Shown in pieces: positions 7,244-59,596 of a DNA stretch of 64,000 nt (the stretch's first letter is position 1; each line of letters begins with the position of its first letter). Position numbers and translations under genes: made by a program. The notes under the pieces are model-generated. The model did not search any database, had not been told where the DNA came from, and worked only from the letters and a program-made list of their open reading frames with translations. The stretch is from assembly GCA_964554645.1 (NCBI GenBank), contig CAZKPK010000001.1, forward strand, positions 3,697 to 67,696. Reading direction: 5' to 3'. This stretch comes from an uncultured Candidatus Saccharibacteria bacterium. GTDB lineage: Bacteria > Patescibacteriota > Minisyncoccia > Phycocordibacterales > UBA9973.

Positions 7244-8383
7244 ATGGATAATCCGTTTAAAAAAATATTTTCCAGTATAAGAAATCTCACAAAAAGTGGA
7301 GAAGATAGCGCTGTTGGCATTGATATTGGTTCTTCCGCAATCAAGGTGGTTGAGATAAAAAGGAAAAGAGGCAAAGTGGTGCTTGAAACCTATGGAGCAA
7401 TAGCTCTTGGTTCCTATGACGCCCTTGATGTGGGGCGTGTCACCAATCTCTCGGTTGAAAAGATGGCGGAAGCTCTCAAGGAGGTCTTGAAGCAGTCCGG
7501 GATTACCACTACTTCAGGGGCTTTTTCTATTCCCATCCAATCAAGTTTAATTTTTGCCGTTGAACTTCCGGTTCAGGCTAAAGAAAGCGAGATAGCGACA
7601 ATTATTCCCACTGAAGCTCGCAAGTATATTCCGGTGCCAATTACGGAAGTTTCTCTTGATTATTTTATCTTGCCTCAAAAAGAACCTTCTTTTGAAGAGA
7701 TGAATGCAGTTGTTGATAATCCCGACATTCCGCAAAAGCCGACAGATAAAACAAGCGTGCTTGTGGTGGCGACGCAAAATGACGCAATTTCCAAATATCG
7801 TTCCATCGTTTCTCAATGCTCTCTCTCCGCCTCTTTTTTTGAAATTGAAATATTTTCTTCAATCAGGGCGAATTTTGAACACGAACTTTCTCCAGTGCTG
7901 TTGATGGATTTCGGCGCCTCCCGCACGAAACTCTCTTTGGTTGAGTTTGGAATGGTCAAAAGTTACCATACGATAGATAAAGGGGGAGCCGATATAACCG
8001 ACTCTATTTCCAAATCTTTAAGTATTCCTTTCAGTGAGGCGGAAAAAATGAAAAAAGAATTTGGTCTCTTTGAAAATCCGGTGGAAAAAAGTTTGTCGGA
8101 TATCATCAGAATCCATATTGATTATATTTTTTCTGAAGCCAATAATGTGCTGTTGGAGCATGAGAAAAGATACAATAAAACTATAAGCAAAGTGATATTT
8201 ACAGGCGGCGGATCTCTTTTGAAGGGGCTGAAAGAAGTGGCGGCAAATAATTTTCGAGCGGAAATAGAAATCGGCCATCCTTTCAGCAAGGTCAATGCTC
8301 CAGCCTTTTTGGAAAAAGTTTTGGAAACGATGGGTCCCGAATTCGCCGTCGCCTTGGGACTGGCGTTGCGAAAGTTGCAGTAA
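7244..8383 (+). CDS. pilM: type IV pilus assembly protein PilM (actin-like ATPase)
   Basis: 379 aa; GIDIGSSAIKVVEI N-terminal actin-fold motif, FTGGGSLLKGL. Confidence 0.9.
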   Translation: MDNPFKKIFSSIRNLTKSGEDSAVGIDIGSSAIKVVEIKRKRGKVVLETYGAIALGSYDALDVGRVTNLSVEKMAEALKEVLKQSGITTTSGAFSIPIQSSLIFAVELPVQAKESEIATIIPTEARKYIPVPITEVSLDYFILPQKEPSFEEMNAVVDNPDIPQKPTDKTSVLVVATQNDAISKYRSIVSQCSLSASFFEIEIFSSIRANFEHELSPVLLMDFGASRTKLSLVEFGMVKSYHTIDKGGADITDSISKSLSIPFSEAEKMKKEFGLFENPVEKSLSDIIRIHIDYIFSEANNVLLEHEKRYNKTISKVIFTGGGSLLKGLKEVAANNFRAEIEIGHPFSKVNAPAFLEKVLETMGPEFAVALGLALRKLQ

Positions 8384-8389
8384 AAAATT

Positions 8390-8437
8390 ATCCACCCCGT
8401 CCTTTGATTACAAAGTCCACCCCTCAAGAGGGGAATC
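8390..8437 (+). repeat. family A hairpin repeat (unit)
   Basis: ATCCACCCCG-[CCTTTGATTACAAAG]-TCCACCCCTCAAGAGGGGAATC; 47 nt identical to 16013-16059; starts 7 nt after pilM stop. Confidence 0.9.
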
Positions 8438-8444
8438 AGAAAAA

Positions 8445-8945
8445 ATGAAAGAAACTACCCCAAAAAAAGAAAAGTTTAAAGAAGTAATTGTTTCAGATGA
8501 AATTAGAAAATATCTTTCAGAAGCTACATGGCTGAAAGAGGGGGAAGATGTTAGACTCCCGGATTATATAAGACTCAAAACTGAAATAAGAGATATTTTA
8601 GTCCGAGTTGGAATTTGGTCGGATGAATTTTCTAAATGGCTAGATATGAATCTTGACGGTGTAAGTTTGCTGGGCAAACAAATTGAGGCAGTAGGCCAAT
8701 GGATGGAACGCAAAGATAATAAATATAGAAAAGAAAACTTAGAACATTACCGTGCTGGTGCAAAAACAAGCCTAGAATATTTGGAAGGCTGGTCTCCAGC
8801 ATTTGAAAAGTGGCTTCTTGATGGTTTGCCAGGAGATCTGCAAAAAGTTGGTGAAAACATGGATTATATAGGGAGAGTGTCTAGCACTATCGGAGCTATT
8901 AATATGGCAAAAAGATTGCTTAAGAAAAAAAAAGATCAAAAGTAA
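8445..8945 (+). CDS. hypothetical protein (accessory insertion in pil operon)
   Basis: 166 aa from ATG 8445 (MKETTPKKEKF...). The track ORF 8295 start reads through repeat A1 and overlaps pilM, so it is trimmed. Confidence 0.6.
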   Translation: MKETTPKKEKFKEVIVSDEIRKYLSEATWLKEGEDVRLPDYIRLKTEIRDILVRVGIWSDEFSKWLDMNLDGVSLLGKQIEAVGQWMERKDNKYRKENLEHYRAGAKTSLEYLEGWSPAFEKWLLDGLPGDLQKVGENMDYIGRVSSTIGAINMAKRLLKKKKDQK

Positions 8946-9026
8946 ACTATATTTCAACATGAGGAAGCGATATAAACAGAAAAGTAATAATCTAGATTAA
9001 AATAACTATATGCGCAATAGGCAACC

Positions 9027-9112
9027 ATCCACCCCGTCTCGACTAAAGTCGAGTCACCCCTCAAGAGGGGAACGTCCACCCCGACGCAAGCGTCACCCCT
9101 CAAGAGGGGAAT
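9027..9112 (+). repeat. family A repeat, tandem pair
   Basis: Two units: ATCCACCCCG-TCTCGACTAAAGTCGAGT-CACCCCTCAAGAGGGGAA and TCCACCCCG-ACGCAAGCGT-CACCCCTCAAGAGGGGAAT. Confidence 0.9.
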
Positions 9113-9162
9113 GGAATCCAAAATCTCTATATCCATATTGGGAAATTCCTAAAAACAAAATT

Positions 9163-9522
9163 TTGACTGATAGGGCAAAAGATTTAAGAAAGGCGGGTAA
9201 TTTATCTGAAGTTATTTTTTGGCAAACTTTTAAAGATAAAAATAAATTAGGTTTTGATATTGATAGACAAGTTATAATCGGCAATTATATTGTAGATTTT
9301 TTTATTCCCGAACTAGGTTTAGTTTTTGAGATAGACGGTTCAAGTCATGACGATAAGCTTGAATATGATGCTGAACGAGATGCTTTTATGAGAGATTTAA
9401 ATTTAAAAGTGGTTAGAATTCTTGATATTGATGTGAAGAAGAATCTAGGAAGTGTCTATCAATTTGTATTAGAAACAATACATAAAAGAAAAAAGGATGC
9501 ATTTGAATTATTCCCCTCTTGA
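9163..9522 (+). CDS. DUF559 (Vsr-like/PD-(D/E)XK) endonuclease-domain protein
   Basis: LRKAGNLSEVIFWQ..GFDIDRQVIIGNYIVDFFIPELGLVFEIDGSSH matches the DUF559 core. TTG 9163 is my start guess; ORF upstream to 9010 is repeat-encoded. The TGA stop lies inside the right-hand repeat. Confidence 0.75.
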   Translation: MTDRAKDLRKAGNLSEVIFWQTFKDKNKLGFDIDRQVIIGNYIVDFFIPELGLVFEIDGSSHDDKLEYDAERDAFMRDLNLKVVRILDIDVKKNLGSVYQFVLETIHKRKKDAFELFPS

Positions 9523-9596
9523 GGGGTACTCCGACTTCAGTCGGAGTGGGGTGGATGTATGAGGGGTGACCCGATGACCATCGGGTCGGGGTGGAT
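9510..9596 (-). repeat. family A repeat, tandem pair in inverted orientation
   Basis: ATTCCCCTCTTGAGGGGTA-CTCCGACTTCAGTCGGAG-TGGGGTGGAT + GTATGAGGGGTG-ACCCGATGACCATCGGGT-CGGGGTGGAT; reverse complement of family A consensus. Confidence 0.9.
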
Positions 9597-9665
9597 AGCT
9601 GTAGAACCAGAGTTATGCACATTATATTTCACTTAAGTTTGTTTTTGTAATATAATTAAGATACG

Positions 9666-10271
9666 ATGGAGCAGAGTTTCCAAACATCATTTATACCTAA
9701 AAAACCGATAGTGAAAGAACGCGCCATTCCGGCGCGACCTATTGGTATTTTTATCATCATTACTATTTTTGTTTTATTCACCGTGCTTTTGGCAACCGTC
9801 GCTCTTTATTTCTATAAAGGGATTTTGGCAAAGAACATTACGCAAATGGAGAATGACTTAAATCTGGCTAAAAATCGTTTTGAACCTTCTAAAATAACGG
9901 AGCTCCAGCTATTAGACAAGCGTCTGCGCGCATCAAGTGAAGTTCTGTCTCATCATATAGCTATCACGCCTGTCTTTCAAGCATTGCAAGCCATTACTAT
10001 GAAAACTGTCCGTTATACTAAGTTCAGTTATGATTTTGGGAATACGAAAGATGCGAAAGATACGAAAGTGATTATCAAATTAAGCGGCCAGGCAGTCGGT
10101 TATCGCTCGGTTGCTCTGCAATCTGATCTTTTTGCTAAAAATAAAAATTTAATTGATCCAGTTTTTTCCAACCTGGCGCTTGATGACAAAGGCAATGTCC
10201 TTTTTGATCTGGAATTTTCGGTCGATCCGTCTTTGGTTGATTATAAGCAAATGCTCTTAACCCAAAGTTAA
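9666..10271 (+). CDS. PilN-like pilus assembly membrane protein
   Basis: 201 aa; single TM (IGIFIIITIFVLFTVLLATVALYF); position in pilM-N-O series; call is position/topology based. Confidence 0.55.
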   Translation: MEQSFQTSFIPKKPIVKERAIPARPIGIFIIITIFVLFTVLLATVALYFYKGILAKNITQMENDLNLAKNRFEPSKITELQLLDKRLRASSEVLSHHIAITPVFQALQAITMKTVRYTKFSYDFGNTKDAKDTKVIIKLSGQAVGYRSVALQSDLFAKNKNLIDPVFSNLALDDKGNVLFDLEFSVDPSLVDYKQMLLTQS

Positions 10272-14684: not shown

Positions 14685-14689
14685 AAAGA

Positions 14690-15953: not shown

Positions 15954-15957
15954 GATT

Positions 15958-16059
15958 GATTCTCCTCTTGAGGAGTACTCCGACTCAGGTCGGAGGGAGG
16001 TGGATGAGTTTTTCCACCCCGTCCTTTGATTACAAAGTCCACCCCTCAAGAGGGGAATC
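15958..16059. repeat. family A inverted doublet (REPIN-like)
   Basis: Reverse unit GATTCTCCTCTTGAGGAG..GGGAGGTGGAT (15958-16005) faces forward unit TCCACCCC..CCCCTCAAGAGGGGAATC (16013-16059); 18-nt terminal inverted repeats, 2 mismatches. Confidence 0.9.
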
Positions 16060-16134
16060 GCTACCCCTGTGGATAACTTTCTTGCATGTTTTTTTGCCTC
16101 TATATGATATAATTACTCCATTAGAAAAATATTT

Positions 16135-20593: not shown

Positions 20594-23222
<2,629 letters not shown>

Positions 23223-29438: not shown

Positions 29439-31367
29439 ATGAAAATTTCTTATAATTGGCTCAAATGGTATATACCGGAAGCGCCTCCCGCAAACAAACT
29501 TGCGGATATTTTTAATTACCATATTTGCGAAGTGGAGAGTGTCCAACACCGAGTGTTGGACAAAGATAAAGATTGGATTTTTGATTTAAAAGTTTTGCCG
29601 AACCGCGCGCATGATTTACTTTCACATCAGGGAGTCGCTCGCGAGCTTGCTTCACTTTTAGATATCAAATATGTAGATCCCACGCCGAAATATAAAATTC
29701 CCGCCTCCGCCAAGGCTGCCCCCTTCGCTGAAGTGGCTACGAAGGCCAAGTCGGCGGGCAAGCCGGAATTAAAAATTGATGTTCAAACGCCTTTATGCAG
29801 GCGATATATGGGCAGAATTATAAGGGGAATAAAAATCGGTCCCAGTCCGGAGTGGATGGTGAAGCATTTAGAATCAATAGGACAGAGAAGTATAAATAAT
29901 ATTGTAGATGCCGCCAATATTGTAATGTTTGATTGCGGACAGCCGACTCATGCTTTTGATCTGGATAAAATGAATAGCAAGATAATAGTGCGCGAGGCAG
30001 AAAATGACGAAGACATAACCACTTTAGATAATCAGGGAATAAAATTAAAAAGTTCAAATATGGTGATTGTAGATTCTAAAAATATTTTAGCGATTGCCGG
30101 AATAAAAGGCGGGAAGATTGCGGAAGTGGACAATAATACAAAAAATATAATTCTTGAGGTTGCTAATTTTGATCCGGTTTCGGTGCGGAAAACAGCTCAA
30201 GCCTTTAATCTATTTACCGACGCGCGAAAGAGGTTTGAAAATGACCTGTCGCCAGAATTGGCACCATATGCCATGCGCGAACTCTCGGCTCTCATTTTTG
30301 AAATGTGTCCGGACGCTATTTTTGAAGATGTTGTGGATGTTTACCCCCACACCAATGATATTGGTGTGGGGGTTTATCCTGAAAAACAAAAGGAGAAAAA
30401 ACTTTCTTTTTCGGCTGAAAGAATTTCAAAAATTTTAGGACTCAAAGTTTCAGTTAAAGAAATAGAAAATATTTTGCAGAGATATAATTTTAGGTATAAA
30501 GAAAATAAAGGGAAATTTGAGGTTGTTGTGCCACCGATGCGTCTTGATTTAGCAATAGAAGAAGATATGGCGGAAGAGATAGGTAGAATTCTGGGATATG
30601 ATAAAGTAAAACCACAAATTCCCCACATGTCTGACATGTGGGAACCACAGGTTAATGAGATTTATGCAAAAATTTCCTGGGTCAGAAATAAATTATTGGC
30701 TGATGGATATTCCGAAGTGATGACTTATACTTTTCGAGAAAAGGGAGAAATAGAAGTGCAAAATAGCGCTTCCGATAAAAAGTTTTTGCGAACGAATTTA
30801 ACTGATGGATTGAAAGAAAGCGTTAAATTAAATCACGCCAATGCCCCGCTGTTAGGAATTGACGAAATTAAAGTTTTTGAAATTGGAACTGTTTTCAAAA
30901 AAGATAAAGAGCAGATAAATATTTGTTTTAGTGACAAAAAAAATATCACAGAAGTTTCTTTAAATGATTTTTGTAAAGATATGCTTTCTAGTGATTCTCC
31001 TCTTGAGGAGTACCCTTTAGGGGGAGGTGGAAAATTTATCCACCCCGTCGCAAGCGCCACCCCTCAAGAGGGGAATAGATTCAAGATGTGGTCTTTGTTT
31101 CCTTTCATTGCGCGCGATATCGCTGTCTTTGTGCCGGAAAAAATTAAGAGTTTGGAAATAGAAAAAATAATAAAAAAGAATATGGGAAATATGGTGATTC
31201 GAGGTCCGGAACTTTTTGATGAATTCAAAAAAGGCAATCAGATTTCTTATGCCTTCAGATTGGTTTTTCAATCTTACGATCGGACACTGACAGACGCAGA
31301 AGTGAATGAAATTATGGATAAAATAACTGACAAAATTAAGAAGAATAAAGGTTGGCAAGTAAGGTAA
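29439..31367 (+). CDS. pheT: phenylalanine--tRNA ligase beta subunit (reduced architecture, several repeat-derived inserts)
   Basis: 642 aa; MKISYNWLKWYI, LPNRAHDLLSHQGVAREL, B3_4 IVDAANIVMFDCGQPTHAFDLDK, C-terminal FPFIARDIAVFV. Confidence 0.93.
   Translation: MKISYNWLKWYIPEAPPANKLADIFNYHICEVESVQHRVLDKDKDWIFDLKVLPNRAHDLLSHQGVARELASLLDIKYVDPTPKYKIPASAKAAPFAEVATKAKSAGKPELKIDVQTPLCRRYMGRIIRGIKIGPSPEWMVKHLESIGQRSINNIVDAANIVMFDCGQPTHAFDLDKMNSKIIVREAENDEDITTLDNQGIKLKSSNMVIVDSKNILAIAGIKGGKIAEVDNNTKNIILEVANFDPVSVRKTAQAFNLFTDARKRFENDLSPELAPYAMRELSALIFEMCPDAIFEDVVDVYPHTNDIGVGVYPEKQKEKKLSFSAERISKILGLKVSVKEIENILQRYNFRYKENKGKFEVVVPPMRLDLAIEEDMAEEIGRILGYDKVKPQIPHMSDMWEPQVNEIYAKISWVRNKLLADGYSEVMTYTFREKGEIEVQNSASDKKFLRTNLTDGLKESVKLNHANAPLLGIDEIKVFEIGTVFKKDKEQINICFSDKKNITEVSLNDFCKDMLSSDSPLEEYPLGGGGKFIHPVASATPQEGNRFKMWSLFPFIARDIAVFVPEKIKSLEIEKIIKKNMGNMVIRGPELFDEFKKGNQISYAFRLVFQSYDRTLTDAEVNEIMDKITDKIKKNKGWQVR
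29700..29758. repeat. GC-rich imperfect long hairpin inside pheT
   Basis: CCCGCC..CCTTCG / CGAAGG..GGCGGG arms; translated PASAKAAPFAEVATKAKSAG; strong local GC excess. Confidence 0.55.
30343..30373. repeat. 31-nt perfect palindrome inside pheT
   Basis: ACCCCCACACCAAT-GAT-ATTGGTGTGGGGGT; flanked by GTTTAC/GTTTAT; translated YPHTNDIGVGV. Confidence 0.85.
30622..30642. repeat. family B variant palindrome inside pheT
   Basis: CCCACATGTCTGACATGTGGG (21 nt), translated PHMSDMW (compare HRSDLW from canonical copies). Confidence 0.8.
30993..31076. repeat. family A inverted doublet inserted in frame in pheT
   Basis: GATTCTCCTCTTGAGGAG..GGGAGGTGGA + ATCCACCCCGTCGCAAGCGCCACCCCTCAAGAGGGGAAT; 84 nt = 28 codons (DSPLEEYPLGGGGKFIHPVASATPQEGN). 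Confidence 0.9.
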
Positions 31368-33507: not shown

Positions 33508-34095
33508 ATGAAAAAATTAATCTTAGCTTCAAGTTCAAGCACAAGGAAAAATTTGCTTACAGAAGCCGGCTTGAATTTTGAAATTGATCCAAGTAGTTAC
33601 GAAGAAGATATAACATTATTAATGTCTCCAAAAGAATTAGTGGCTCATTTATCTTACGGTAAAGCAAAAGATGTAGCATCGAGGCACCAAGAAGCCATAG
33701 TTCTAGGAGCTGATACAATTATTGTCTATCAAGATAAAATTCTCGGTAAACCTCATACATCGGAAAGAGCTAAAGAAATGTTAAAAATGTTAAGTGGTAG
33801 GGCACACTTAGTTGTTACTGGTTTTACAATAATTGATACGAAAAATAATCATAGCATCTCCAAAGTTGTAGAAACAGAAGTGTTTTTCAAAAATCTCACA
33901 GATAGAGAAATAGATAATTATGTAGCTACCGGTGAACCACTGAATAAAGCAGGGGCTTATGCAATTTTAGAGAATGGTGGCAAATTTGTTAAAAAGATCG
34001 AAGGAAGTAGAACAAATGTGTCAGGTTTACCCATGGAGGAGTTAATGAATGTTCTAAAAAATTCCCATAGGTCAGACCTATGGGATGTGTTATAA
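33508..34095 (+). CDS. maf: Maf-like nucleoside triphosphate pyrophosphatase
   Basis: 195 aa from ATG 33508; KLILASSSSTRKNLL, GADTIIVYQDKILGKP, AGAYAI; last residues (HRSDLWDVL) encoded by a family B palindrome. Confidence 0.88.
   Translation: MKKLILASSSSTRKNLLTEAGLNFEIDPSSYEEDITLLMSPKELVAHLSYGKAKDVASRHQEAIVLGADTIIVYQDKILGKPHTSERAKEMLKMLSGRAHLVVTGFTIIDTKNNHSISKVVETEVFFKNLTDREIDNYVATGEPLNKAGAYAILENGGKFVKKIEGSRTNVSGLPMEELMNVLKNSHRSDLWDVL
34064..34084. repeat. family B palindrome (left flank of RAYT gene)
   Basis: CCCATAGGTCAGACCTATGGG. Confidence 0.9.
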
Positions 34096-34102
34096 TAGCA
34101 GT

Positions 34103-34780
34103 ATGAGTCTCAGAGATTCGAATTTAGTGGAAAAAGAGTATTATCATATTTACAATCGCGGTAATGGAAAAAATAAAATTTTTAATTCCATAGAAGATTA
34201 CGATCGTTTTTGTAAACTTCTTTTTATTTGTAATTCTGAAAGAAGTTTTACATTCAGAGATTCAGTCGTAGATCAAAAAATTGATGCCTGGGATTTTGAA
34301 AGGGGAGAACCGCTTGTGGAAATATGTGCATGGGTTTTAATGCCTAATCATTTCCATATAATTTTAATTTCCCATAGGTCGGACCTATGGGATGAGAAGT
34401 ATAATCCAATAACGGAATTTATGAGAAAACTTTCTACGGCTTACGCTATGTATTTTAATAAGAAATATAACCGCACTGGATCTCTTTTTGAAGGAAAGTT
34501 TAAGTCTAAACATATTAGCAAAGATAATTATTTCCATTATTTATTTTCTTACATTCATCTTAATCCAATTAAATTAATCCAACCAGATTGGAAAGAAAAT
34601 GGTATCAAGAATAAAAAAGAAGCGATTGCTTATCTTATGAATTTTAAATATTCAAGTTTTCAAGATTTTTATGGTGTCTCTAGAAAAGAAGGAAAGATAA
34701 TAAATAAGAATTCGTTACCAGAAGATTTTAAATACAATCATGTTGAGGAACTTTTTGAATGGATAACTGATTCCCCATAG
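34103..34780 (+). CDS. IS200-like Y1 HUH transposase, REP-associated (RAYT-like)
   Basis: YHIYNRGN, HUH motif LMPNHFHIIL, catalytic Tyr motif YIHLNP; flanked by palindromes at 34064 and 34773. Confidence 0.85.
   Translation: MSLRDSNLVEKEYYHIYNRGNGKNKIFNSIEDYDRFCKLLFICNSERSFTFRDSVVDQKIDAWDFERGEPLVEICAWVLMPNHFHIILISHRSDLWDEKYNPITEFMRKLSTAYAMYFNKKYNRTGSLFEGKFKSKHISKDNYFHYLFSYIHLNPIKLIQPDWKENGIKNKKEAIAYLMNFKYSSFQDFYGVSRKEGKIINKNSLPEDFKYNHVEELFEWITDSP
34371..34391. repeat. family B palindrome inserted inside the RAYT ORF
   Basis: CCCATAGGTCGGACCTATGGG, 21 nt = 7 codons (SHRSDLW), 2 residues after the HUH motif. Confidence 0.9.
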
Positions 34781-34795
34781 GTCAGACCTATGGGG
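34773..34795. repeat. family B palindrome (right flank; provides RAYT stop codon)
   Basis: CCCCATAGGTCAGACCTATGGGG; the TAG at 34778-34780 is the stop. Confidence 0.9.
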
Positions 34796-50119: not shown

Positions 50120-53100
50120 ATGAAAACTTTAAACACAACTGAATTTAATTCGATCGCCCTACGGCTTGCGTCTCCGGAACAAATCAAGGAGTGGTCATTC
50201 GGGGAAGTGACGAAGCCCGAGACGATAAATTATCGCACTGGCCGATCCGAACGTGGAGGTCTCTTTGATGAAAAAATATTTGGACCGGAAAAAGATTACG
50301 AATGTTATTGCGGAAAATACCGCCGGATTCGTTATAAAGACATCATTTGCGAGAAATGCGGAGTGGAAGTTACCCGTTCGATAGTGCGCCGAGAGCGAAT
50401 GGGACACATCGAGCTTGGAACTCCCGTCTCGCATATTTGGTTTCTGCGCGGGGTGCCTTCTCGGATGAGCATTCTGCTTAATATATCCGTGACGGATCTG
50501 GAAAAGGTAATATATTTTGCCGGATATATAATTACTAAAGTTCACGAGGATGAGAAAGAAGCTGTTATTGCCAATTTAGATAAGGAATACAAATCTAAAT
50601 TAAAAAATGCGACCGATGATGATACTCGAGAAAAATTGAAAAATCTGCTTTCTATTACCAAGAAAGAAATTGGGGAAATTTATGAAGGGAAAGTTCTGAA
50701 TGAAATTTCTTTTCATCACTATTCTTTGAAATACGGAACTTGTTTTGAGGCCAATATAGGCGCTGAAGCTATTTATTCCATTTTTAAAAATTTAGATTTA
50801 GATAAATTAAAGACCCATACCGAAAAGATGATCGAAAAAGCCAGCGTGGCTGAAAAAGAGAAATTACAGAAAAGGCTTTCTCTTATTCGCGCTATGACCT
50901 ATGCCGGAATTCGTCCGGAATGGATGTTTTTGACCGTTTTTCCAGTTATTCCTCCTGTCTTGCGCCCGATGGTCGCTTTAGATGGAGGTCGGCACGCGAC
51001 TTCCGACTTGAATGATCTTTATCGTCGAGTTATTAATCGAAACAATCGCTTGAAGAAGTTGAAAGAAATCAATGCGCCGGATGTAATTTTGCGAAATGAA
51101 AAAAGAATTATTCAAGAAGCGGTTGATGCGCTGATCGATAATTCAATTGCCAAACAGAATGATTCTGCCGCCATGAGTCAGTCTCAAAAGCGTCCCCTAA
51201 AATCGCTGTCAGACAATTTAAAATCAAAACAAGGTCTTTTCCGCCAAAATTTGCTTGGAAAAAGAGTAGATTATTCAGGACGTTCAGTGATTGTCGTTGG
51301 TCCCGAGCTTAAGCTTAATCAATGCGGATTGCCAAAACACATGGCGCTGGAACTTTTTAGGCCATTTGTAATTTCCAAAATCTTGCAAGCGGAATTGGCG
51401 TTTAATATTCGCGGGGCAAACAAGCTGATAGAAGAACGAGGGGGGGAAGTCTGGGCAATGCTGGAAGAGGTTATTGCCGGAAAATACGTTCTCTTGAACC
51501 GCGCGCCGACCCTCCATCGTTTAGGTATCCAAGCTTTTAATCCGATTTTAATCGAGGGAAATGCTATTCAAGTTCACCCTCTTGTCTGCCAAGCTTTCAA
51601 CGCTGACTTTGATGGAGACCAAATGGCAGTCTATGTTCCTTTGCTTGAAGAAGCGCAATGGGAGGCAAAAGAGTTCATGGCTTCGAACAAGAATTTACTA
51701 AAACCCCAAAATGGCGATCCGATCGTGCATCCGCGCATGGATATGGTGCTTGGAAGTTTTTGGATGACGAAATCAATAGAAGGAGAAGTGGGTGAAGGCA
51801 AGTATTTTTCTAGGCCCAACACCGCCGTCACGGCCTATGATTATGGGATTATTTCTATGCGGGCCAAAATAAAAGTTCTTCCAATGGATAAACCCAAGTA
51901 TAAGAAATTTAATGGAGAAATTTTTGAAACGACCGTCGGCAGAATCATATTCAATAGTATTTTGCCGGATGATTTTCACTATGTAAATGATGAAATGACT
52001 CAAGATAGGTTGTCTTCTCTCTTGGATGAATTGATTATGCACTCGGGAGTTGAAAATATTCCCCATATTTTGGATACAATTAAAGCTTTTGGTTTTAAAT
52101 ATTCTACTATCTCCGGCACCACTTGGGGGTTGGATAATGTTTCTGTGTCTTCCGAGAAACCGAAAATTATAGCCGAAGGCAAGAAACTTGAAAAAGAAAT
52201 AATCTCCCAGTGGCAGGAAGGTCTTTTATCTGAGGAAGAAAAATATCAAAAAGTTATTGAAGTTTGGACGCATATGAAGAAAAATTTGGAAAAAGTTTTA
52301 CCCAAGACGGTTGACAAACACAGTTCCACTTACGATATATTTACTTCTAAAGCCAGAGGCACGATGAGTTCTTTGATGCAGATGACTGGAATGATCGGGC
52401 TGATTCAAAATAACCAAGGCAAAACCCTGGAATTTCCGATTATCCCTTGCTATCAAGAAGGGCTTTCCCCAATTGAATATTTCGTTATTACTCATGGCGC
52501 TCGCAAAGGCGCTTCCGATACCGCGTTAAATACCGCCAAAGCTGGATATCTAACTCGCAGATTGGTTGATGTGGCGCAGGATGTGGTTATCACTGAAGTA
52601 GATTGCGGAACCAAAGAGGGCAGGATAGTTACCAAAGAAAATATTTCTGGAATTGAAATTCCGCTTTCAAAAAATATCCGCGGGCGGGTATTGGCGGGAG
52701 ATCTTAAAAACAAAAATGGCAAGGTAGTTTATAAAAAAGGGTTTTTAGTCACGAAAGAGGAGGCCTACAATATTGAAGGAGCAGGTTTTACGGAAGTATT
52801 TGTCCGTTCTCCTTTAACCTGCCGCACTGTTCATGGTCTGTGTGTCATGTGTTATGGACTTGACTTAGGACGAAATCGTTTAGTGGAGCTTGGCGAAGCG
52901 GTCGGCATTATCGCGGCTCAGGCCATCGGAGAACCGGGAACTCAGCTTACGCTTCGCACCTTTCACGCTGGGGGCGTTGCCGGCACTGATATTACCACCG
53001 GTCTTCCGCGTGTCGAAGAAATATTTGAAAGGAGAATTCCTAAAAATCCGGCCATTATTTCTGAAACCGATGGTGAAGTGATCGAAATAAAAATAAAAGA

Positions 53101-53791
53101 TCCCGCCTCTGGCGGGACAGGTGTAAAATCTGCTCACTCCCGCGATATTTCAGGATCCGGCGGGGAAAAAATAATCAAAGTGCTTTCAGATCTGGAAGAT
53201 AGTAAGGCGGGGGCTAAAAACGAAATAGAATATCTTGTTCCGTTTCACAGAATGCCTACCGTTAAAGCAGGTGATCACATAAAGAAAGGGGATCTCCTAA
53301 CTGACGGGTCAGCGGATATTGCTGAAATGTTTAAATTTGGCAACAAGGAATTAGTCGAAAATTATATAATTCGGGAAATAAACAAAGTTTATGAATTGCA
53401 AAGCGCTTCAATTTCCAGAAAGCATACGGAAATAATTATCCGCCAAATGTTTTCGCGCCGAAAAATAAAAGACGCGGGCGACACTAATTTTTCCATCGGC
53501 GATATTGTTGAGAATACCGCATTTATAGAAGAAAATCAGAGAGTTGCGCGCTTGGCGGTTAAACCGCCAAGCGCGCTTGGCGGTTTAACCGCCAAAGCAG
53601 AAACAGTGGTGCTTGGTATCACGGAAGTGTCGCTTCGCACTAAAAGTTGGCTCTCGGCGGCTTCGTTCCAAAACACCAATCGCGTTCTTATTGAAAACGC
53701 GGTCAAGGGCGGGGTAGATTCTTTGAGAGGGTTAAAAGAGAATGTTATAATCGGTAGGTTAATTCCGGCTGGAACTGGATTTAAAAAATAA
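50120..53791 (+). CDS. rpoC: DNA-directed RNA polymerase subunit beta'
   Basis: 1223 aa; Zn CYCGKY..CEKCGV, NADFDGDQMAV, GEAVGIIAAQAIGEPGTQLTLRTFH. Confidence 0.98.
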   Translation: MKTLNTTEFNSIALRLASPEQIKEWSFGEVTKPETINYRTGRSERGGLFDEKIFGPEKDYECYCGKYRRIRYKDIICEKCGVEVTRSIVRRERMGHIELGTPVSHIWFLRGVPSRMSILLNISVTDLEKVIYFAGYIITKVHEDEKEAVIANLDKEYKSKLKNATDDDTREKLKNLLSITKKEIGEIYEGKVLNEISFHHYSLKYGTCFEANIGAEAIYSIFKNLDLDKLKTHTEKMIEKASVAEKEKLQKRLSLIRAMTYAGIRPEWMFLTVFPVIPPVLRPMVALDGGRHATSDLNDLYRRVINRNNRLKKLKEINAPDVILRNEKRIIQEAVDALIDNSIAKQNDSAAMSQSQKRPLKSLSDNLKSKQGLFRQNLLGKRVDYSGRSVIVVGPELKLNQCGLPKHMALELFRPFVISKILQAELAFNIRGANKLIEERGGEVWAMLEEVIAGKYVLLNRAPTLHRLGIQAFNPILIEGNAIQVHPLVCQAFNADFDGDQMAVYVPLLEEAQWEAKEFMASNKNLLKPQNGDPIVHPRMDMVLGSFWMTKSIEGEVGEGKYFSRPNTAVTAYDYGIISMRAKIKVLPMDKPKYKKFNGEIFETTVGRIIFNSILPDDFHYVNDEMTQDRLSSLLDELIMHSGVENIPHILDTIKAFGFKYSTISGTTWGLDNVSVSSEKPKIIAEGKKLEKEIISQWQEGLLSEEEKYQKVIEVWTHMKKNLEKVLPKTVDKHSSTYDIFTSKARGTMSSLMQMTGMIGLIQNNQGKTLEFPIIPCYQEGLSPIEYFVITHGARKGASDTALNTAKAGYLTRRLVDVAQDVVITEVDCGTKEGRIVTKENISGIEIPLSKNIRGRVLAGDLKNKNGKVVYKKGFLVTKEEAYNIEGAGFTEVFVRSPLTCRTVHGLCVMCYGLDLGRNRLVELGEAVGIIAAQAIGEPGTQLTLRTFHAGGVAGTDITTGLPRVEEIFERRIPKNPAIISETDGEVIEIKIKDPASGGTGVKSAHSRDISGSGGEKIIKVLSDLEDSKAGAKNEIEYLVPFHRMPTVKAGDHIKKGDLLTDGSADIAEMFKFGNKELVENYIIREINKVYELQSASISRKHTEIIIRQMFSRRKIKDAGDTNFSIGDIVENTAFIEENQRVARLAVKPPSALGGLTAKAETVVLGITEVSLRTKSWLSAASFQNTNRVLIENAVKGGVDSLRGLKENVIIGRLIPAGTGFKK
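53102..53116. repeat. GC hairpin within a GC-rich segment of rpoC
   Basis: CCCGCC-TCT-GGCGGG; surrounding 53095-53170 encodes DPASGGTGVKSAHSRDISGSGGE. Confidence 0.55.
53546..53597. repeat. family C palindrome doublet inside rpoC
   Basis: GCGCGCTTGGCGGTT-A-AACCGCCAAGCGCGC (31-nt perfect palindrome) + CTTGGCGGTTTAACCGCCAAAG; translated LAVKPPSALGGLTAK. Confidence 0.92.
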
Positions 53792-59551: not shown

Positions 59552-59596
59552 ATTCCCCTCTTGAGGGGTGGCTCGGTAATCCGAGACGGGGTGGAT
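59552..59596 (-). repeat. family A repeat unit directly after dsbA-like stop
   Basis: ATTCCCCTCTTGAGGGGTGG-CTCGGTAATCCGAG-ACGGGGTGGAT. Confidence 0.9.

Follow-up and report, generated by a model that had tools for sequence, protein, structure and literature searches.

This analysis concerns a gene for a DUF559 protein, a Vsr-like endonuclease, and the short structured repeat, here called family A, that surrounds it in a 64,000-nucleotide stretch of DNA (the window) from an uncultured Candidatus Saccharibacteria bacterium (GenBank assembly GCA_964554645.1, contig CAZKPK010000001.1, positions 3,697 to 67,696). On balance, gene and repeat probably form a selfish element, a repeat-nuclease partnership like that of repetitive extragenic palindromes (REPs) and the REP-associated tyrosine transposases (RAYTs), with a Vsr-like nuclease as the enzyme. 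An earlier note on the window had proposed such a partnership, or else a selfish cassette that uses the hairpins as its ends. The proposal is supported by the conserved linkage of gene and repeat, an empty site, the variety of gene contexts, polymorphic in-frame inserts in host genes, and an excess of solo and dimeric units away from the gene.

At the window locus, the gene is bracketed by two forward units (9027-9112) and two reverse units (9510-9596), as the note had described; the outermost reverse unit is called truncated since it lacks the tail pyrimidine arm. The innermost arms (9095-9112 and 9510-9527) are complementary at 18 of 18 positions and form the perfect 18-nt inverted repeat that had been claimed, while the longer pair, made of the outer-left and inner-right units, extends over 47 nt with 81% complementarity. 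The coding sequence (CDS) also runs as the note had it. Its ATG lies 17 nt 5' of the first unit, its frame passes through both left units, and its TGA (9520-9522) falls inside the TTCCCCTCTTGA of the inner right unit. An identical protein is annotated in GCA_016186455.1, a metagenome-assembled genome of Candidatus Nomurabacteria, which belongs to the candidate phyla radiation (CPR; Paceibacterota).

Most likely the CDS is 9010-9522 and the flanking units are translated. Across 19 relatives, the stretch of 16 codons that separates left repeat from Pfam core (WNPKSLYPYWEIPKNK) varies 22/8/60 at codon positions 1/2/3, and an in-frame ATG precedes a conserved W codon in 18 of 19 loci, mostly a few codons upstream of the forward unit. 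Variation dominated by third positions, together with the upstream ATG, argues for this CDS, and the alternative start at TTG 9163, where the Pfam core begins, was rejected on the same two grounds. In the open reading frames (ORFs) called in relatives, translated family A units likewise appear, as an N-terminal "...STPSxxxxxHPSRGE" and a C-terminal "...(L)FPS*" peptide. A promoter scan detected no promoter-like site 5' of the ATG at 9010.

The assignment of the protein, including the retained core motif, stands as in the note. Pfam DUF559 (PF04480) matches residues 52-157 with 76.8 bits against a cutoff of 20.6 (E=1.5e-21), and YIVDF...FEIDG..H is intact; no Y1_Tnp match was found in the protein. 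The protein is not an ortholog of YcjD, since the NCBIfam YcjD equivalog PRK09767 scores it at only 48 bits where the cutoff is 218. Residues D45, E56, D58 and H62 are invariant across a 35-sequence alignment and, judging from the family, presumably form the active site. An AlphaFold model (predicted local distance difference test score, pLDDT, 84.8) has a Vsr-like fold. Among solved structures, Foldseek places the Neisseria DUF559 protein 3HRL first (E=1e-5) and 3R3P, the catalytic domain of the homing endonuclease I-Bth0305I, second (probability 1.0), followed by PvuRts1I/AbaSI and Vsr (1CW0/1VSR). A protein search retrieved more than 1200 relatives, the best of which are 73-90% identical. 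Compared within the same genomes, the DUF559 protein is better conserved (83-88% identity) than three of its neighbours, PilM (78-87%), PilN (61-72%) and PilO (55-66%).

To follow the pairing beyond the window, 80 genomic loci were taken from one-genome-per-species contigs, which with the window makes 81, and a locus was counted as linked if a palindromic tail lay within 260 nt of the DUF559 core. A unit accompanies the gene in 79 of the 81 loci and in at least eight bacterial phyla. Near the DUF559 gene there are 5.47 tails per kb, compared with 0.112 per kb in the remainder of these loci, an approximately 49-fold difference. In the 19 close relatives (18 Paceibacterota loci of 72-88% identity and the window), a forward unit stands 5' of the core at a fixed distance in every case and a reverse unit lies at or after the stop in 18. 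In this clade the unit position relative to the gene is fixed, at -72 and -6. The note had named the lack of repeats around DUF559 paralogs as an outcome that would speak against its proposal; all 19 close relatives and nearly all loci overall are flanked. Loci of 51-68% identity carry the same or variant units in the opposite arrangement to that of the window, namely reverse unit, gene, forward unit, with the tails outward, and among the 62 more distant loci, 41 show this tails-outward form with units on either side. These distant loci belong to Brocadiaceae/Kuenenia, Hyphomicrobiales, Ignavibacteria, Methylotenera, Cycloclasticus, Desulfobulbaceae, Bacteroidota, Cloacimonadota, Gracilibacteria, Dojkabacteria and others.

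The note had also called for a survey of co-variation between family A variants and DUF559 relatives. The tail-arm variant (CCCCTC, CCCCTCC or CCCCTTC) tracks the protein clade, with 71% protein identity within and 58% between variants and none of 2000 permutations as extreme, in statistics computed without phylogenetic correction. Proteins of Nomurabacteria and anammox Planctomycetes are 66% identical, and both are accompanied by the same 16-nt tail motif (at most 2 mismatches). As far as sequence comparison can show it, the pairing thus goes beyond local chance, and the link of gene and unit is conserved, with unit variants changing along with the protein clade. Chance juxtaposition, or a role of the units as generic intergenic signals such as terminators or mRNA stabilisers, would draw some plausibility from the several unrelated palindromic families in the intergenic regions of this genome. 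However, it fails to account for the density excess over 81 loci, the fixed positions in the close clade and the presence of units in frame inside coding sequences. A terminator scan, moreover, identified no intrinsic terminators among the units and no terminator-like T-run. On these comparisons, chance can be regarded as effectively excluded.

A further candidate for the enzyme lies within the window itself. The ORF at 34085-34780 resembles a RAYT, with matches to Y1_Tnp (E=5e-4) and, below cutoff, to NCBIfam REP_Tyr_transpos (E=5.5e-12), and since REP families classically depend on RAYTs (PMC3733652), it could be supposed that this transposase mobilises family A and that the DUF559 gene merely sits where REP-like units gather. 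The note had remarked on the shared topology of the two loci, and the RAYT-like ORF is indeed flanked by palindromes; these are copies of CCCATAGGTCAGACCTATGGG at 34064 and 34774, however, rather than family A. Family A therefore does not track the RAYT-like gene; such tracking was an outcome that, according to the note, would have refuted its proposal. Family A also lacks the GTAG tag, and the linkage of its units to DUF559 genes recurs through many phyla, so that mobilisation by the RAYT-like transposase appears very improbable. A third copy of CCCATAGGTCAGACCTATGGG lies inside the RAYT-like ORF at 34371, with more at 14689/14713 and 30622, and ORF and palindrome (34064-34794) make up a second, separate repeat-enzyme pair of the window.

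The forward consensus of family A reads (A-rich)-T-CCACCCC-G(T/C)C-[variable hairpin]-(C)CA-CCCCTCAAGAGGGG-AAT, and its G-rich strand TT-CCCCTC-tt-GAGGGG-TG-[variable hairpin]-C-GGGGTGG-AT. A unit thus has a pyrimidine arm and the purine arm complementary to it, then a variable hairpin and, as third block, the mirror image of the purine arm with A changed to T. The T at -1 is conserved in 92% of units and the T that forms the third base of the AAT after the tail in 93%. In the window, the 16-mer CACCCCTCAAGAGGGG (at most 2 mismatches) occurs 7 times against 0.00 expected and TCCACCCCG 7 times against 0.12 expected. On folding, every unit gives two adjacent hairpins. Among 204 units from 81 sources there are 109 distinct middle segments, of which 91% fold better than their shuffles, and the variable hairpin is evidently maintained by compensatory change. 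Since translated units occur in any of the three frames, what is conserved is the nucleic acid; conservation at the peptide level was rejected for this reason. An Rfam scan of 8300-9700 at a permissive threshold returned only miRNA-type matches at chance level, which means that the units belong to no described RNA family, and on the window cassette it matched neither a ribozyme nor an intron.

The third block changes with the purine arm. GAGGGG is joined by GGGGTG in 221 of 236 units, GGAGGGG by GGGGTGG in 59 of 65, GAAGGGG by GGGGTAG in 40 of 41 and AAGGGG by GGGGTAT in all 3 (Fisher p=7e-44, a value that ignores kinship; at least two independent changes). This co-variation is the rule expected of a purine-motif intrastrand triplex (G*G:C, (A/T)*A:T), which the units may be capable of forming.

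Evidence that the cassette moves comes from its sites. In the window and in loci L003, L005 and L009, it lies between pilM and pilN, the window cassette thus having pil genes as neighbours. In L010 the spacer between pilM and the PilN-like gene is 22 nt long and holds no unit, and in L017 it is 120 nt long and holds no family A unit; in both of these related genomes, the cassette lies about 4 kb away. An extra ORF occupies the pilM-pilN site in three of the four occupied loci (the window, L003 and L005), L009 having none there. In the window this is orf166 (8445-8945, 166 aa), which is placed after pilM and before the DUF559 cassette, has family A units on either side and gives no Pfam or NCBIfam match. 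L003 and L005 contain no homologue of orf166 and have a different ORF each at that place; family A units may delimit a variable cargo slot. The otherwise empty spacer of L017 contains an unrelated palindrome of about 100 nt (cccgttagaaat...atttctaacggg, L017 5945-6060), from which it follows that the structured inserts drawn to one intergenic site differ between genomes.

The 19 close relatives occupy at least seven gene contexts. Outside the CPR, the cassette lives mostly inside other genes: in 44 of 62 loci the DUF559 core and a host gene form one uninterrupted ORF of 450-1375 aa, and the hosts among those inspected are restriction-modification genes (Type ISP, HsdS, HsdR, Mod-like and PglX-like). 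Within Type ISP genes the position of the insert is the same across several genera. Most Type ISP homologues lack it, for example P0121 (74% identical), which reads "...LGLTFTNEKEQSENT|FAPIDILDYIY..." across the site, and a minority carry an insert of about 170 aa; precomputed Pfam annotation gives PF18135 only, with PF04480 and PF18741 added where the insert is present. No antisense cassette was found inside a host gene in about 60 non-CPR loci, and the antisense frames are closed in 56 of 62 loci. This orientation bias suggests that the element may depend on host translation for its expression. Some host ORFs contain, in addition to the cassette, solo units or arrays of two to four units that are translated in frame, for example as "NSPPQEGQGVV" peptides in the HsdR-like ORF of L067 and as arrays in L048 and L057; units can therefore multiply locally within a gene.

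Units without a gene are far more numerous. A scan of metagenome contigs for the exact tail gave 120 loci with 148 tails and 132 full units, of which only 14 tails lie within 400 nt of a DUF559 gene; about 90% of units are solo or dimeric copies elsewhere, an excess of roughly 10:1. Head-to-head dimers make up many of these, and some 16 solo units stand in frame within long ORFs. Among 2.9 million viral contigs there was a single exact tail match, and carriage by phages was rejected on this count. Within the limits of comparative data, insertion is therefore polymorphic, sense-oriented and in frame, and solo copies are in excess.

The inverted flanks and the residence in restriction-modification genes also bring to mind a programmed invertible switch, serving phase variation of the host restriction-modification gene or of the DUF559 gene. 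Indeed, "DUF559 domain-containing protein" is enriched (odds ratio 14.3), along with restriction-modification genes, among predicted targets of programmed inversion (PMC9881135). Those predictions, however, start from inverted-repeat attributes of the sequence, and the architecture of the cassette alone could plausibly produce the enrichment. There is no recombinase gene beside the window cassette, and since this cassette is intergenic, its inversion would switch nothing obvious. With none of the intragenic cassettes antisense, and with solo units, dimers and cross-phylum spread left unexplained, a switch is quite improbable.

The window holds gene-less copies of family A as well (Table 1), and no second DUF559 paralog was found in it. 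The head-to-head dimer resembles a cassette of the tails-outward type without its gene, in the manner of a REP doublet forming hairpins (REPIN) or of a miniature transposable element with inverted repeats (MITE), and folds into a single long hairpin (-30.1 kcal/mol, z=-6.9). Another copy lies in the pheT ORF (29439-31367, phenylalanyl-tRNA synthetase beta chain), where the unit adds IHPVASATPQEGN to a linker in the style of a Rickettsia palindromic element (RPE).

Table 1. Positions of the DUF559 gene and of family A copies in the window
Feature	Position	Strand	Remarks
DUF559 (Vsr-like endonuclease) CDS, most likely extent	9010..9522	+	170 aa; ORF list, Pfam DUF559 E=1.5e-21
DUF559 putative catalytic core, aa 52-157, with invariant D...E-x-D-G..H motif (IVDF...EIDGSSH)	9163..9480	+	Pfam profile positions 3-108 of 109
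Family A unit U1, forward: ATCCACCCCG + hairpin TCTCGAC-TAAA-GTCGAG + TCACCCCTCAAGAGGGGAA	9027..9072	+	Two adjacent hairpins on folding
Family A unit U2, forward, with short GACGC-AA-GCGTC hairpin; tail adjoins conserved coding sequence	9075..9112	+	
Family A unit U3, reverse, holding the DUF559 stop codon	9510..9556	-	
Family A unit U4, reverse, truncated	9560..9596	-	
Solo family A unit directly 3' of the pilM stop	8390..8436	+	With U3/U4, brackets orf166 and the DUF559 gene
Head-to-head family A dimer	15954..16058	.	15954-16006 reverse, degenerate; 16013-16058 forward
Solo family A unit in frame within pheT	31038..31076	+	Translated as IHPVASATPQEGN, just before the FDX-ACB domain
Solo family A unit, intergenic, beside a DsbA-like gene	59552..59596	-	

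In the partnership that we favour, the DUF559 protein would be the cognate sequence- or structure-specific endonuclease of family A. An autonomous copy would comprise the DUF559 gene with its inverted flanking units, and solo units and head-to-head dimers would be its non-autonomous derivatives. The nuclease may nick or cut at or beside a folded or duplex unit, after which host repair or replication could copy single units or the whole cassette to new sites. Often the cassette would lack expression signals of its own and be expressed within a host ORF, the window cassette having its own ATG, and it would move within and between phyla.

A known repeat of comparable design extends the question to Escherichia coli. 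The BoxC/PIT/TMECO repeats of E. coli and other Proteobacteria have the consensus CCCTCNCCC-N3-6-GGGNGAGGG-N3-GGGNGAGGG and adopt a triplex structure in vitro (Holder et al. 2015, PMC4666352). TMECO is reported to have no known function; the authors "never found" transposases nearby, and they report no integrases in its gene contexts and no link to mobile elements. TMECO loci, of which E. coli K-12 has 23, are reported as hotspots of instability (PMC4666352). Like TMECO, family A has a C-rich arm, a loop, a G-rich arm, a second loop and a G-rich mirror block in which A is changed to T, and both are intergenic, dispersed, found as inverted pairs and very widely conserved. Unlike TMECO, family A has arms of 6-7 nt rather than 9 nt, and its second loop is a variable hairpin of 11-20 nt rather than 3 nt; neither the short loops of the consensus (3-6 and 3 nt) nor its sequence is matched. 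Family A is thus, by its sequence, an architectural relative of BoxC/PIT/TMECO and not a sequence member.

A DUF559 gene of E. coli and one of Neisseria also have such motifs beside them. In E. coli K-12 (locus L204, NC_000913.3 1351150-1351790), the DUF559 gene ycjD lies at 1351407-1351760 on the complementary strand, and TMECO no. 9 (1351204-1351239; Holder Table 1) is located 165 nt 3' of it on the same strand. A degenerate TMECO-like motif overlaps the ycjD stop, and a partial duplicate of the ycjD 3' end lies between this motif and TMECO no. 9. By our own estimate, the chance of a TMECO copy within 400 nt of ycjD is about 0.004 (23 copies in 4.6 Mb). In Neisseria meningitidis (locus L206), the ortholog of the crystallised NGO0050 lies between carA and carB and has on its two sides, as direct copies, the motifs CCTCTCTCC-cgtg-GGAGAGAG-tta-GAGAGAGGG (L206 1945-1978 and 2536-2568). 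The Neisseria repeat dRS3 (ATTCCC-N8-GGGAAT) was not found next to this gene, the motif there being of PIT type instead. The carA-carB spacer (L206 1700-2720) is long and repeat-rich, and the gene is flanked in it both by the mirror-repeat (PIT-type) motif and by a longer repeat, about 140 nt in length, with CCCTCTCCCCAGCCCTCCCCCACGGGGGAGGGGG as part of it.

Of 5426 complete E. coli genomes, 3377 have the ycjD locus and about 38% lack it. TMECO-like copies were counted in a sample of 60 genomes, in which ycjD presence was scored by proxy and is confounded by phylogroup. Genomes with the ycjD-linked copy have 11-27 TMECO-like places, and of the 22 without it, 13 have five or fewer; all genomes in the sample with five or fewer copies lack the ycjD-linked one. 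DUF559 nucleases may be considered as the missing cognate enzymes of BoxC/PIT/TMECO-type repeats, and perhaps of CGTC-type or RPE-like ones. They would then define a new class of mobile element with triplex or hairpin ends in place of transposase-binding terminal inverted repeats, with cross-phylum spread, in-frame insertion into host genes (preferentially those of restriction-modification) and expression through the host protein. This wider proposal is tentative, and we regard it as possible rather than probable.

The same observations can be read with DUF559 as a passenger or caretaker of the repeats. The units would then spread by other means, such as host recombination, replication slippage or another transposase, and the nuclease would process or repair their hairpin or triplex structures, as Vsr does at mismatches, the linkage being selected because it lowers the cost of the repeats. 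The high conservation of the protein, above that of three of its neighbours, is compatible with this, as is the instability reported for TMECO loci with no transposase nearby (PMC4666352). However, a caretaker acting in trans needs neither a flanking substrate, as is found in 79 of 81 loci, nor in-frame insertion in unrelated restriction-modification genes, and the cassette passes as a whole from one context or phylum to another. The sampled E. coli genomes with one to five TMECO-like copies, all of them without the ycjD-linked copy, also run counter to it. Taken together, a caretaker or passenger role is unlikely, although it is the alternative to which we give most weight.

It should be noted that several points weigh against the partnership, some of which favour the caretaker. 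A lone nuclease of about 115-170 aa is incapable of strand transfer, so any transposition-like step would need host functions. No direct repeat indicating a target-site duplication was found around 136 units. The remaining E. coli genomes without the ycjD-linked copy, O157:H7 included, hold 11-14 TMECO-like copies. In E. coli and Neisseria the DUF559 locus appears single and fixed in the records inspected, and several species share a gene context, so long vertical persistence must be common. Strong purifying selection on the protein could equally fit a host function. Further, the co-variation of tail arm and protein clade takes no account of phylogeny, and a triplex in vivo is unsupported for TMECO (PMC4666352).

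With these reservations, the partnership of DUF559 and family A can be compared with other systems. As in REP/RAYT systems (REPtrons and REPINs), a single-copy nuclease gene lies between inverted copies of a short structured repeat, the repeat is dispersed both singly and in inverted dimers with a long-hairpin fold, and a variable, compensated stem stands beside conserved unpaired tags. The enzyme, however, is a Vsr-like DUF559 nuclease and not an HUH/Y1 (IS200/IS605-like) transposase. Instead of the GTAG tag there is CCACCCC-G(T/C)C before the hairpin, GTAG occurring only within the GGGGTAG of the CCCCTTC variant. Family A also differs in its pyrimidine/purine/mirror-purine (triplex-type) module, in the translation of its units and in a cassette that is often in frame in host genes. 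Lacking both the HUH enzyme and the GTAG tag, the pair falls outside the REP/RAYT family.

A further comparison is with the CGTC-tagged REPs, among them Rickettsia RPE-4 and RPE-6 and Neisseria dRS3, which "lack a dedicated transposase" and consist of a CGTC tag, an 8-9-bp stem beginning with A/T pairs, a 4-5-nt loop and a CCA tail (Di Nocera et al. 2013, PMC3733652). Family A recalls them in its CGTC-stem-loop-stem-CCA core, with a CCA-like tail, GTC following CCCC in 113 of 204 units and most units ending in CC or GC before ACCCC, and it likewise occurs as head-to-head dimers with some copies inside genes. Unlike these REPs, its stems have 4-8 bp and do not begin with A/T pairs, and it carries the extra CCACCCC and CCCCTCAAGAGGGG modules.

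The enzyme has the nuclease fold of the Vsr-like (EDxHD) homing endonucleases, such as I-Bth0305I and the free-standing enzymes of "fractured genes" (PMC3239194, PMC2677866), one of which (3R3P) was the second-best structural match. As with homing endonuclease genes, the cassette behaves as if selfish and has a defined place within a conserved host gene, and alleles without it exist among the Type ISP homologues. The insert stays in the mature ORF, though, and is read through in frame; with neither intron nor intein, it is no classical homing endonuclease gene. It is also flanked by inverted structured repeats that occur solo as well. Insertion sequences (IS) and their MITEs offer the parallel of a gene between inverted ends as the autonomous copy and of miniatures made up of ends only, and RPEs that of short palindromic insertions tolerated in frame, as in pheT. 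Unlike IS and MITEs, the cassette has no DDE, serine or tyrosine transposase and no target-site duplication, DUF559 is its only protein, and its ends occur in either orientation, heads-out in the window clade and tails-out elsewhere.

DUF559 is a large, widespread family without an assigned function that includes E. coli YcjD and the structural-genomics crystal structure 3HRL. The BoxC/PIT/TMECO repeats have been known since the 1990s, and CGTC-tagged REPs were defined in 2013; in the literature searched, neither has a known function, origin or mobilising enzyme. A conserved link between DUF559 and repeats joins these two long-standing problems and gives each partner a testable explanation. 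No description of such a partnership was found in full-text literature on DUF559, ycjD, Vsr-like homing endonucleases or BoxC/TMECO, the coverage of which was incomplete. If correct, the link would add a third type of enzyme, a Vsr-like nuclease, to the bacterial repeat-plus-enzyme partnerships, reveal a cassette that lives in frame inside restriction-modification genes and possibly explain the DUF559 genes among predicted inversion targets. The connection to BoxC/triplex repeats, newly proposed here, supplies a candidate enzyme for the E. coli repeats and can be tested directly in E. coli.

Other palindromes of the window belong to neither family A nor CCCATAGGTCAGACCTATGGG. A third family, CTTGGCGGTTTAACCGCCAAG, has three copies in the NAD-dependent DNA ligase ORF 21045-23222 (21354-21809) and two in the large ORF 50120-53791 (53551-53602), and these too appear to be in-frame intragenic repeats. 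A fourth, TTCTCCGCCCAAGGCGGATCCGCCTTTGGCGGAAA, consists of two adjacent hairpins and has five copies, at 16131, 18403, 41307, 45340 and 56142. This small genome thus contains at least four distinct REP-like families.

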